Source: Shigella phage SFN6B
DNA length: 43,036 nucleotides
Sequence record: KY684082
Direction: 5' to 3' (one strand)
The position numbers were made by a program, and so were the translations under genes. The notes under the pieces were generated by a model. It made no database searches. It was not told where the DNA came from and saw nothing but the letters and a program-made list of their open reading frames with translations. This document shows positions 31,479 to 34,400 of the stretch, in pieces; positions within the stretch are counted from its first letter, which is position 1; every line of letters starts with the position of its first letter.

Positions 31479-34400
31479 ATGGCTCAGTTTCTGAACCGAG
31501 AACCGAATCCACAGGAAAAGGATTCTGCTAAGGGCGCAACACTTAAACCTGCGCCTACAAGCGTAGATTGGAATGACGCAGGAGATGGTGGACTGAATGC
31601 ACTACAGCGTTCATCTATACTGGCCCAGGCTAAAACCCCTGCAACGTCAGCAGGAGAAAGCTTTGCTGCTGGAGTTGGTAACAGCATTATAGCTGCAGCC
31701 ATTAGAAAGGCCTCCTCCCCAACATTCGTCCCAGAGCAGGGGTTTGATGCTAAGAAACAACTAAGCACCGACTCCCGAGCTAAGCTCTACACTCCTAATC
31801 AGGAAGAGATTGATTACTTGCACGGGGCGGTGTCCCTGGATGATTATAATTATCGCATTCAGGCTATGCTAGAACAGCGTGACCGTGACCGTCAGATGTC
31901 TGATAACACGGTAGCTGGATTCGCCGGTGCACTGGCTGGTGATTCTCCGTTTATACTGGCTCCGATGTCAGCGGCGGGTATCGCTGGTCGTGCTGGCTTA
32001 GCAGTGCGTACTGCTATCCGTGCAGCGGATGTAGGTACAGCTGTCTATGCGCAGGACCAATTAGGGCAGTCTGCGGCAGTCACTGCTCTAGTAGCAGGCG
32101 TAGCCGGTCTAGACCAACTCTGGGATATCCGTAGGGCAGTGCGCGCGTCTACGGTAGCTGCCTCAACTACGAGAACTGCTGAGACCACACCTAATACTGC
32201 TACGGCAACTTCCCGCACTGCTCCGGAAGAAGTAGTAACAAGTCGCAATGGGGTAGATTCCCCCGCTGGTCCTTCTAATGCGCAAGCTGATAGTGCTGCG
32301 GCTGCTAAAACCACTGACGGTTTACCAGAAGGTTTAAGCTTGAACGTGCTGGATGACGTAGAGCACCACGCTTACTCTGGTGTACGTGTACCTGGTATAG
32401 AGGTAGAAGTAAATCGTGGAGATAAGTTGGTTGGTGTTGTGCAGGCTTATCGTGTAGGTGACGATTTACAAGTAGCACATGCTTGGGTTGACAAATCCCT
32501 GCGTGGCAAGGGAGTAGGCGCGAGTATGTACAAAGCACTGGTTAGGCGCGCTACTGATGCAGGGTATGGCAACTTGTTGTCTGATAGCTCCGTAACTGCG
32601 TCTGCTCAGCAGATGTGGCGCAAACTTGGTGCTACCAAAACCAAAGATTTTAAAGAACTAACGGATGGTATTGAAGGGCAGCGTTATGCGGTCTCTGCGG
32701 ATGAAAAGTCCCCACTCTTTACTTTGGACTTGAAACGTCCTGTGTTTGACCCAGATGCGCCTACAACTCGTACAGCAAGGGATACTAATGTTACAGGAGT
32801 AGGAGAAGGGGACACAATACTCACTAAGGTACTGGATGAACCGATCAAAGTCCTCAGAAACAATACTACTACTGTTAACATTAAAGCGCAGGACGTGGTT
32901 CGATTCCTAAAGACCTCTGAGCATTTATCTAAGGGTCAGAAGGCTATCCTGGACACCCTGGGCGATGCAGTACAGGACATTGATTTTAAGTTGGTGGCAG
33001 GCTCTTCTAACCGTAGCCACTACAGCTTTCCACTGGTATCAAGAACTGATAGAGGTTTTATATCTTTACGTGCCCCTAAGAAAGCTAATGGAAGTACTTG
33101 GGCAACTGTAGGTGATGCCCTACGCGCCATGGACGCCGATACTAGTCGAGTAGCAGTGCACGAACTGATTCACGCTGCCACCACTAGGGCCCTTAAGCGG
33201 AACCCTGAAATTGCTAGTAAGCTGGAAGAGGTGCGCGCTGCAATAGCAGCTGATTCAACACTCAGTGATAAGCTTAAGTATTATGCAAGCGATGTGCACG
33301 AGATGTTAGCTGGACTAGGTGATAGCCCTGAGTGGGTGGAGTATCTCTCTAGAACTCAATCCCCTACCGGTAAGAGTATGCTCCGCCAGATTGGTGAGTA
33401 CATCATGAATGCCCTTGGGATCCGTACTAAAGGTTCCGCTTTGGAAGATGTACTGGATGCATACGAAGACGCTGTTAAGTGGACCGCAAAAGATTACGCA
33501 GAACAAGTTCAGAGTTTCCGCAGCGAATCCTTCCAGGACTTAGCGGATACATCGGTTAAGAACGAGGCCTTGAAAGCTCAGGCTATGATGGACACGGCCA
33601 AGCGTAAGCTCGCCACTATGTTCTCACTCTATGACAATATTGCAGAGGGTAGCGAGGACCTAGCACGCTTACTGGTATCTGATGCTACTGCTGTAGGCGG
33701 TCGTAAACCGTCTGTGGTGGACTTCAAGCGTAACCTTACGTTGGAGATGGACGCTAGTGCTAGTGTAGTTGAGGACGCTATACTTGGTGCCCTCAAGGCC
33801 AAAGGTGTAGGTTTCCTAGACCGCTTCTTCCATCGTAGCAACTTCCGAGCAGCCCGTGCGGACTTAGAGGGTCGCTTGGGCCGTTACCTGGACTCTGCGT
33901 ACAGCGCTGAGGTTAACGGACGCCCCGTGCCTCTGCCGGACTCTGACTTAGTTCCGCTTGTTGAGGCGTACCGCAACTCCGGCTGGGCCAGTAAGTGGCA
34001 TGACCACATGACCGCTGCCGGTTTAGTGGATGAAGGTACTCTGGTTAAATCAGACTACTACTTCCCACGCCAGTACAGCTACGATAAGATGCGCCAGGGT
34101 ATTGCAAATGGGCGCTCTCTGGACAACTATCGGGACCTGTTCCGTCAGGCACTGCGTGATGTATACCCATCTATGGAGCCAGAAGTCGTCCAGCGCGTCG
34201 CTAAGGAAATGGTTGATGGTATCTACAACGGCCGCGCCGCTGCTTCTGGCCCTATGTGGAAGCAACTCATCAATGGTATGGGTAATGATGAAGTAGTCAT
34301 GGCTATGCGTAATGCTGGTGTAGATGAAAGTGCAATCCAGAGCTTCCTGGCGGGTAACGTCCGGGAATCTGGTGCTACATCTCCTGCTCGGAACCTGCGT

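Follow-up and report, generated by a model that had tools for sequence, protein, structure and literature searches.

Gene context and copies of the repeat

The window, i.e. the whole stretch of 43,036 nucleotides of Shigella phage SFN6B (KY684082) that was analysed, is a near-complete Drulisvirus (KP34-like) genome with all genes on the + strand. The gene under study (31479..35741, + strand, 1420 aa) was assigned to an internal virion (ejection/core) protein, based on the annotation of relatives and on PHROGs, where it is listed as 'internal virion protein with endolysin domain' (phrog_342, E 7.5e-236), and is the counterpart of T7 gp16; its earlier designation as an ejection protein fits this assignment. 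It contains a variable linker into which a GNAT acetyltransferase domain is inserted (32129..32738, + strand), delimited by comparison with relatives. The GNAT-like segment, which the earlier note had placed just upstream of the repeat described below, was recovered by Pfam (PF00583, aa 311-384, 29.1 bits at a cut-off of 20.7). The insertion was found in the window, in ZH5, myPSH1235 and KpV48, and in two IMG/VR contigs; most relatives carry approximately 46 nt in its place. Further upstream are located the single-subunit phage RNA polymerase gene (17707..20175, + strand, 822 aa; Pfam PF00940, 303 bits) and, after the capsid gene, a strong intrinsic terminator (24651..24686, + strand; 12-bp stem, 9 GC pairs, T8). 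Downstream, the late genes for HNH endonuclease, tail fibre, small and large terminase, spanin/holin/endolysin and tailspike (35742..43014, + strand) were identified from ORFs, PHROGs/Pfam matches and relatives; this agrees with the tail, terminase and lysis genes named in the earlier note.

The 17-mer ATGTTACAGGAGTAGGA at 32788..32804 lies in frame within this ORF, where codons 437-444 encode NVTGVGEG, and is the third copy of a promoter-like repeat, as the earlier note had stated. Exact copies were found at 718, 20183 and 32788, all on the + strand, along with a copy with 3 mismatches at 12370. Shuffled sequences gave 0.08 matches with at most 3 mismatches, and four matches were reached in 0 of 100 shuffles. 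The repeat unit is longer than the 17-mer, with the 19-nt sequence TAATGTTACAGGAGTAGGA being identical at 20181 and 32786; the left-end copy of this unit, at 716, starts with TGATG.

The repeat corresponds to the "strong promoter S1/S2" of the KP34 RNA polymerase, 5'-T(A/G)ATGTTACAGGAGTA-3' (Lu et al. 2019, Front Microbiol 10:2487, PMC6834552). In that study the S1 16-mer was active in vitro with purified KP34 polymerase, a 14-nt core was much weaker, and copies were given at 475-490, 22197-22212 and 33721-33736 of KP34; the templates were synthetic 16-mers and a post-polymerase fragment, not the genomic context of the internal copy, and the third copy was given by coordinates only, its location in coding sequence being unmentioned (PMC6834552). 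In the window, the internal copy TAATGTTACAGGAGTA (positions -16 to -1 at 32786..32801, + strand, like all genes) matches S1 exactly, is embedded in codons 436-441 and aligns codon for codon with the orthologous KP34 site 33721-33736 (locus L013). The major copy (20181..20196, + strand), whose KP34 counterpart was mapped by 5'-RACE, lies 5 nt past the stop codon of the polymerase gene; its +1 is at 20197 and the ATG follows 3 nt further on, at 20200. The left-end copy TGATGTTACAGGAGTA (716..731, + strand), in the S2 form, is located in the non-coding left arm and corresponds to KP34 475-490.

For the internal copy, a transcription start at G32802 (+ strand), corresponding to 33737 in KP34, is predicted by position, since the KP34 start mapped by 5'-RACE (22213) directly follows the 16-mer 22197-22212. 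The +1 G stands directly 3' of the 16-mer, 32802-32804 read GGA as at the other two copies, and the predicted transcript would begin with GGAGAAGGGG.

The likeness to KP34 comprises the identical 16-mer, its three places (left arm, post-polymerase, internal core protein gene) and the same 822-aa polymerase family, the window polymerase being equal in length to that of KP34 and at least 93% identical to 30 Drulisvirus polymerases. The two differ in that the window phage is closest to Escherichia phage ZH5, shares approximately 78% nucleotide identity with KP34 in the gene under study and carries the GNAT insertion just upstream of the promoter. The internal 17-mer is thus a published KP34-type promoter, real but already known, and all three copies should be marked in annotation as phage-polymerase promoters. 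This class of site has also been catalogued computationally, PhageProm having predicted 467 KP34-like promoters in 135 genomes, approximately 3.5 per genome, together with a covariation analysis of T7-like polymerases (NAR 2025, gkaf140, PMC11880802); the KP34 passages of that article hold no statement on the -7 A/C alleles, polymerase residues 703-706 or the intragenic position. A separate 32-mer, found at 1796 and 2644 of the window, failed as a template for KP34 polymerase in vitro (PMC6834552) and is still annotated as a promoter in relatives, e.g. SU503.

Silent-site conservation and covariation with the polymerase

Synonymous diversity was computed over the last 1000 codons of the gene in 44 non-redundant relatives, which are related to each other and in many cases derive from one metagenome. 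The 12-codon window starting at aa 436 gave the lowest value of all 1006 windows (0.089 vs a gene mean of 0.31), followed by the 3' end of the gene, which overlaps the start signals of the next gene. Silent-site conservation was wider than the 16-mer, extending roughly from -54 to +36, and the promoter alone does not explain the part outside the 16-mer. The internal copy is not absolutely invariant, since one contig (L037) carries a silent change at -13 (AAT to AAC).

The sole common variant within the internal 16-mer is A or C at -7, which is silent (Thr ACA/ACC). In all 38 genomes compared (24 A/A, 14 C/C) the post-polymerase copy had the same state, even though the tree built from the surrounding gene has at least 8 changes of state; this concordance between copies was matched in 0 of 100000 label shuffles. 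The left-end copy agreed at -7 in all 25 contigs in which both copies were read, and all three copies are of C type in SU503. Within the polymerase, codons 703-706 (SAVL in the window; 19813..19824, + strand) covary with this base: all 21 A-type genomes had SAVL at residues 703-706 and all 10 C-type genomes had TI(M/L)R, so that the -7 base fits the polymerase in 31 of 31 genomes. These four are the only columns of the 822-column alignment that separate A-type from C-type genomes, and they align to T7 residues 755-761, the T7-equivalent specificity loop.

The peptide itself was missing in two relatives, Shigella phage Buco and ECO104 4-5-2, both of which keep the neighbouring FDPDAPT(T/K)R; judged from these genomes, NVTGVGEG is dispensable. 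The Buco linker holds a copy, with one mismatch, of that phage's own post-polymerase motif (GTGTTACAGGGTATAG) in the same V-T-G frame. The post-polymerase motif of the ECO104 4-5-2-type relative was not found in its ejection-protein linker, so that positional conservation holds for Bucovirus and not for every relative.

As far as comparative evidence goes, these patterns show that the internal copy is probably kept as a promoter, by selection on DNA, and not for the peptide NVTGVGEG. The internal promoter proposed in the earlier note is hence borne out at the sequence level by the S1 16-mer at the orthologous position, the lowest synonymous diversity of the gene region and the covariation at -7. 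We consider it highly probable that the phage's own single-subunit RNA polymerase uses the motif T(A/G)ATGTTAC(A/C)GGAGTA as a working promoter.

Alternative explanations for the conserved site

The earlier note had also considered a recombination or module boundary. An 84-nt nucleotide-conservation island surrounds the promoter (32739..32822, + strand, -63 to +21), as seen in the identity profile and by blastn; it is flanked by the variable/insertion segment on one side and a divergent segment on the other, and could be kept as a crossover point between the linker/GNAT cassette and the divergent C-terminal part, with promoter activity being incidental or the anchor acting in addition to promoter function. 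In favour of this, homology to GNAT-less relatives restarts exactly at 32739, 47 nt before the motif, nucleotide identity peaks locally at 86-92% in the bin aa 401-440 vs 52-79% in the flanks, blastn against AltoGao detected nothing between 32139 and 33559 except the island, where similarity stops at 32822, 21 nt past the start site, and the scatter of the -7 state over the gene tree indicates frequent exchange in the region. However, an anchor needs neither a variable base that agrees, in all 38 genomes, with the allele of the polymerase gene 12.6 kb away nor identity to two other promoter copies, and the Buco linker carries a promoter-like copy of different sequence. Of the boundary claim, the location of the promoter in an island that begins at the right edge of the GNAT insertion stood; an exact boundary at the motif seems unlikely, since the insertion ends at 32738, 47 nt off, the motif occurs irrespective of the insertion and the identity profile forms an island, not a step. 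We regard the anchor explanation as rather unlikely. A look-alike without promoter function, i.e. a sequence kept for NVTGVGEG, or a relic or chance repeat unused in vivo, would agree with the conservation of the peptide in all Drulisvirus relatives examined, but is very improbable in view of the frozen silent third positions, with the lowest synonymous diversity of the 1006 windows, the single silent polymorphism that follows the polymerase, the loss of the peptide in Buco and ECO104 4-5-2 despite FDPDAPT(T/K)R, and three exact copies vs 0.08 expected by chance.

Two further explanations concern signals in the DNA or RNA. A site-specific nick, replication or packaging signal, as in phiKMV-like phages, is suggested by the C-type sequence from -8 to +2, CCGGAGTAGG, which, when reverse-complemented, is identical to the core of the nick consensus of the phiKMV group (CGACxxxxxCCTA/CTCCGG), and by the left-end copy in a non-coding arm, like T7 phiOL. 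This resemblance of the 10-nt core is real, but the CGAC half is missing, the A-type copies of the window match 9 of 10 core positions, and the full consensus (14 specified bases) gave one match in the window, with 3 mismatches, which is chance level. Moreover, the sole mapped Drulisvirus nick (fHe-Kpn01, nt 7873) is at no promoter copy, and transcription from the 16-mer was observed in vitro (Lu et al. 2019). The nick-site reading was rejected on these grounds, and a non-promoter DNA signal of any of these kinds is hardly to be expected. Equally improbable is an element acting in RNA, be it a conserved mRNA structure or an internal Shine-Dalgarno-like AGGAG causing a ribosome pause or a shorter protein, even though AGGAG is present in the motif, silent-site conservation reaches to about +36 and CCTAC at about -40 could pair with GTAGG at -2 to +3. 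The consensus fold of 13 diverse relatives (region -63 to +67) was weak (-10.8 kcal/mol), with compensatory changes in 0 of 20 predicted pairs, and the first 120 nt of the predicted transcript folded no better than shuffles (z 0.69), so that an RNA structure was rejected. An internal translation start was likewise rejected, as no start codon with a Shine-Dalgarno-like site lies within 1.2 kb downstream; the first ATG, at 32836, lies in another reading frame and exists only through the conserved L-D-E codons. An RNA element would also fail to explain why the site is identical to the other two copies and why it covaries with the polymerase.

Proposed role, known systems and promoter alleles

For the promoter, the following mechanism is proposed. 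The polymerase encoded at 17707-20175 would bind the duplex from -16 to -1, with its specificity loop (residues about 703-706) reading the promoter region around -7, would initiate at G32802 and would proceed rightward, first over the remainder of the ejection-protein gene and then over the genes for tail fibre, terminase, lysis and tailspike. The internal promoter would thereby top up late transcripts begun at 20181 and thinned by the terminator 24651-24686. From the major to the internal promoter, no other + strand terminator was convincing; this one is the same element as the KP34 terminator 26623-26660. Downstream of the internal promoter, no strong + strand terminator was found. Restarting late transcription past this post-capsid terminator is most likely the function of the internal promoter; its use in vivo and its quantitative role are what we infer from this layout. 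The next gene starts approximately 2.9 kb downstream, and the first 1.2 kb of the predicted RNA contain no start codon with a Shine-Dalgarno-like site, so that an RNA with a long untranslated leader is predicted. Because intergenic space is absent, the promoter would have been written into a flexible inter-domain linker, where it would dictate the peptide (N)VTGVG and not vice versa. A single-sequence AlphaFold model of aa 200-520, of low overall confidence (mean pLDDT 48.5), weakly suggests that aa 397-442 form an unstructured linker. The internal site would accordingly be a clean natural example of regulatory DNA overriding coding freedom, with six virion-protein codons dictated, and recoding or domain-swapping of the ejection protein near aa 421-447 would probably harm late gene expression.

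In T7, the strong terminator Tphi follows the major capsid gene, and the class III promoters phi13 and phi17 beyond it restart phage-polymerase transcription and keep the tail-fibre, packaging and lysis genes expressed. The T7 promoters lie in short intergenic gaps near the gene served; T7 has 17 promoters. Past Tphi, phi13 and phi17 thus do the job proposed here for the internal promoter past the post-capsid terminator; unlike them, the internal promoter lies within coding sequence, approximately 2.9 kb from the next gene start, and Drulisviruses possess three strong copies. In LUZ19 (phiKMV-like), the phage-specific promoter P009 was mapped in vivo in the structural region by ONT-cappable-seq (Putzeys et al. 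2024, microLife 5:uqae002, PMC10914365), and its position was called 'in agreement with' KP34 by its authors (PMC10914365). LUZ19 shares with the window a phiKMV-like genome layout in which phage-polymerase promoters are few; in LUZ19, a pair directly follows the polymerase gene and a third lies in the structural module. It differs in the unrelated 20-bp motif GgtTATGTCACacACAnnGG, the genus and the host. Literature searches, within the library covered, yielded no Drulisvirus transcriptome or start-site map.

Sequences related to the promoter were also observed in Klebsiella prophages, where tandem arrays of phage-polymerase promoters stand upstream of a 36-38-aa membrane peptide. The arrays include T7/K11/SP6-like promoters, AATAGTGGCGAGTATAG and the exact KP34 16-mer, the latter in both A and C forms, which constitutes an independent use of this sequence. 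One example, an array together with its peptide gene, lies at 19636-19985 of ST13-OXA48phi12.5. Scans for arrays in contigs of species-representative genomes gave no matches, then chance matches only, and the small array-driven peptides had no match in Pfam or PADLOC. The prophage arrays may represent an anti-phage module of a new and very simple type; if an arms race is at work, they would act as a 'promoter-trap', in which the polymerase of an infecting phage switches on a toxic gene.

We tentatively suggest, as a possibility of low probability, that the A and C states at -7 together with SAVL and TI(M/L)R may constitute two mutually selective polymerase-promoter pairs, repeatedly exchanged by Drulisviruses and driven by such an arms race with prophages. 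If so, the internal copy would be re-tuned at each change of the polymerase allele, because late gene expression depends on it. The silent A/C polymorphism and the four polymerase residues could possibly provide orthogonal polymerase-promoter variants for in vitro transcription.

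Copies of the motif and identity with the KP34 promoter

The window comprises an essentially complete Drulisvirus genome (KP34-like; Autographiviridae, Slopekvirinae), with Escherichia phage ZH5 as closest deposited relative (91% identity across the ejection-protein gene) and the same gene order as KP34 and SU503, i.e. early genes, DNA metabolism, RNA polymerase, head, tail, internal virion proteins, tail fibre, terminase, lysis and tailspike. A single-subunit RNA polymerase (822 aa, Pfam RNA_pol) is encoded at 17707-20175, and the internal virion (ejection) protein (1420 aa, phrog_342) by the ORF 31479-35741. 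Positions 32788-32804 read ATGTTACAGGAGTAGGA, for which exactly three + strand copies were found in the window (718, 20183 and 32788), next to a 3-mismatch relative at 12370; the chance expectation from shuffles was 0.08 matches. The true repeat length is 19 nt, with TAATGTTACAGGAGTAGGA at both 20181 and 32786, while the left-end copy at 716 differs at its start (TGATG...). The earlier note had placed the third copy in frame within 31479-35741, encoding NVTGVGEG downstream of a GNAT-like segment, which was borne out in every detail: the copy corresponds to codons 437-444, and aa 311-384 form a genuine GNAT domain.

By full-text search for the motif sequence, a study of purified KP34 RNA polymerase was located (Lu et al. 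2019, PMC6834552). There, 5'-RACE placed the main KP34 start at the base directly following TAATGTTACAGGAGTA, a short way past the polymerase gene, and transcription in vitro was driven by the 16-mers TAATGTTACAGGAGTA (S1) and TGATGTTACAGGAGTA (S2), the 14-nt core common to both being much weaker. The KP34 copies (475-490, 22197-22212 and 33721-33736; PMC6834552) are reproduced as a trio in the window at 716, 20181 and 32786, and the third one aligns codon for codon with the internal copy, for which, by analogy, the start site is predicted at G32802. Given the identity with S1 and the same three positions, this class of site had already been described; both the element and its position were known before, and the observation is real. 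Among related work, 467 KP34-like promoters in 135 genomes were predicted by a 2025 study (PMC11880802), and a phage-specific promoter in the structural region of the phiKMV-like phage LUZ19 was mapped in vivo (PMC10914365). The literature was also searched for a Drulisvirus transcript map, and none was found for any member.

Several further elements were recorded around these copies. The start of the major promoter (20197) is followed just 3 nt later by an ATG (20200), and an AGGAG inside the promoter stands at Shine-Dalgarno distance from this ATG; RNA begun at the promoter would give the first late ORF almost no leader, and only read-through RNA would provide it with a normal ribosome-binding site. 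ACTTTGGACATTCGGCAAGT at 20128-20147, within the 3' end of the polymerase gene, corresponds to the 'weak promoter' described for KP34 (Lu et al. 2019, PMC6834552), with 2 mismatches to it. ATTAATGTGATACGAGTAGGAACAAC at 12366-12391, in the intergenic stretch ahead of the metallophosphoesterase gene (12408) and preceded by a conserved TTGACTCTGGCTTGATTCTGTGATT and a variable octamer, agrees with the strong promoter at 13/16 positions; it is unchanged in 14/14 Drulisvirus genomes, A and C types (see below) alike, and could be either a phage promoter of a second class or one of host type. A 32-mer, AGCCTATAGC...GCTATGTGAA, at 1796-1827 and 2644-2675, holding the dyad TAGCAYC...GRTGCTA, was predicted as phage promoter by Eriksson et al. 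2015 and is still annotated as such in SU503; KP34 polymerase yielded no transcripts in vitro from a fragment with this 32-mer (PMC6834552). The non-coding left arm (1-1000) carries C and G homopolymer runs at 3-14 and 244-255, and short repeat families surround the left-end promoter copy: GTGCTATCGCTA-type at 335-598 and 968-995, GGGAGGCACTA three times at ~402-434, and TAGTATTGGT at ~893-940. This left-end copy carries a -6 substitution in ZH5 (at 496, G to T) and the IMG/VR copy of Minorna (G to C), the two closest relatives, and the internal copy is intact in both, so that the left-end copy seems less constrained.

Selection on the intragenic copy

New here is the comparative evidence that selection maintains the intragenic copy as a promoter, in co-evolution with the polymerase, for which 61 related loci from IMG/VR were compared. 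Synonymous diversity was determined in 12-codon windows over the final 1000 codons of the gene, aligned by codon in 44 non-redundant relatives. The lowest of 1006 values was obtained for the one starting at aa 436 (0.089 vs. a mean of 0.31), followed by the gene's 3' end, where the sequence also holds start signals of the gene after it; silent-site conservation spans roughly -54 to +36, beyond what the 16-mer explains.

Only one variant is common within the 16-mer, namely A versus C at -7 (A type and C type), and it is silent in the internal copy (Thr ACA/ACC). Internal and post-polymerase copies agreed at this position in 38/38 genomes in which both were readable (24 A/A, 14 C/C), although at least 8 changes of state are required on the tree of the surrounding gene; the left-end copy likewise agreed in 25/25 contigs with both copies read, and all three copies of SU503 are C type. 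Only polymerase residues 703-706 (codons at 19813-19824), among all 822 columns, separate the types, with SAVL in 21 A-type and TI(M/L)R in 10 C-type genomes as two natural specificity-loop alleles. They align to T7 residues 755-761 within the specificity loop, with a T7 segment that fits the known positions R746, N748, R756, Q758, H784 and D812; the T7 loop contains the base-contacting R756 and Q758. As the post-polymerase copy lies only ~370 nt from codons 703-706 and is inherited together with them, the informative agreement is that of the two distant copies, at 12.6 and 19 kb. SAVL and TI(M/L)R with A and C at -7 may constitute an orthogonal polymerase-promoter pair.

The peptide itself is dispensable; NVTGVGEG is absent in Shigella phage Buco (Bucovirus) and Escherichia phage ECO104 4-5-2, where the neighbouring FDPDAPT(T/K)R is kept. 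A repeated motif of Buco's own, GTGTTACACGGTATAG, lies after the polymerase gene and near the right end, and the Buco ejection-protein gene holds a 1-mismatch copy in the same V-T-G reading frame as in Drulisvirus, but 16 codons before FDPDAP, where the Drulisvirus promoter lies 9 codons after it. In ECO104 4-5-2, a comparable internal copy was looked for and none was found. The Buco motif, GT/AAGTTACA(C/G)GGTATAG, occurs at about 21377, 32874 and 42761, i.e. after the polymerase gene, in the linker of the ejection protein and, towards the right end, in a context homologous to that of the left-end copy in Drulisvirus; by these positions, the three-site layout is shared between genera whose promoter sequences differ.

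Taken together, silent sites, covariation and the dispensable peptide show, by sequence comparison, a DNA selected as a polymerase recognition site, and the same tests exclude chance or protein-only conservation of the motif. The suggestion of an internal promoter is therefore supported, the sequence being that of the KP34 promoter. RNA structure at the motif was considered and found without support. A nick site was rejected as well: the C-type promoter from -8 to +2 (CCGGAGTAGG), read as its reverse complement, exactly matches the core of the phiKMV-group nick consensus CGACxxxxxCCTA/CTCCGG, a likeness found in relatives, e.g. SU503 at 34048, but the full consensus is absent, the sole mapped Drulisvirus nick is at nt 7873, and the match is probably coincidence.

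Placement in the ejection-protein gene and proposed role

A single convincing + strand terminator was found between 20181 and the internal promoter, a 12-bp hairpin followed by T8 after the capsid gene (24651-24686), also annotated in KP34; to the right of the internal promoter, no strong + strand terminator was found. With this strong terminator upstream and none further right, the internal promoter would bring polymerase traffic back up over the genes for tail fibre, terminase, lysis and tailspike, much as phi13 and phi17 of T7 do beyond Tphi. Since genes here abut or overlap, the promoter would have been placed in the one tolerant spot, the linker joining the N-terminal part to the remainder of the protein; this linker is of low complexity, shows insertions and deletions among relatives and appears as coil in a single-sequence model (pLDDT 20-35, weak evidence). 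The predicted RNA leader would be ~2.9 kb long, and no internal translation start was detected in its first 1.2 kb.

The motif had alternatively been proposed to mark a module boundary where an effector segment was grafted in. A 610-nt segment with the GNAT domain (32129-32738) is indeed missing in most relatives, but homology resumes precisely at 32739, 47 nt upstream of the promoter, which occurs both with and without the insertion and is thus no graft marker. What stands of the proposal is that the motif lies in an 84-nt conserved island (32739-32822; 86-92% identical vs. 52-79% in the flanks), which is the sole detectable similarity to AltoGao-type phages across 1.4 kb and, being conserved between diverged flanks, may also serve as a crossover point. 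The insertion itself (aa about 217-420, in the ejected-protein linker) was seen in a minority only, namely ZH5, myPSH1235, KpV48 and two IMG/VR contigs, and its GNAT acetyltransferase domain could be an injected effector. Further downstream, an HNH homing-endonuclease ORF (35698-36231; phrog_99, E 9.5e-41) stands between the internal virion protein and tail-fibre genes, which are directly adjacent in Minorna, SU503 and Buco.

KP34-type promoters in Klebsiella prophages

The KP34 16-mer was also found in 15 IMG/VR contigs without homology to the window, all Klebsiella pneumoniae lambdoid prophages (best GenBank match ST13-OXA48phi12.5). It is part of a conserved tandem array at L065:1560-1910 (GenBank MK714353.1 19636-19985) and in contigs L071, L079, L081, L095, L103, L143, L155, L156, L158, L160, L161, L163, L171 and L180, located in the unannotated gap from Rz1 to a small-terminase-like gene and oriented against the prophage late genes. 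The modules are a T7-like promoter in four swapped flavours, resembling the consensus sequences of T7, K11 and SP6; AATAGTGGCGAGTATAG, evidently another phage's promoter given at least 5 same-strand copies in other phage contigs of roughly 45 kb; the exact KP34 promoter (13 C type, 2 A type); and a Buco-like AAGTTACAC element. None of the papers searched contains the array sequences. The array is followed by a strong ribosome-binding site and a hydrophobic peptide of 36-38 aa from at least three families, without match in Pfam or PADLOC. By its arrangement, the array looks like a trap in which the polymerase of an infecting phage would switch on a membrane toxin, and may be a 'promoter trap' abortive-infection module.
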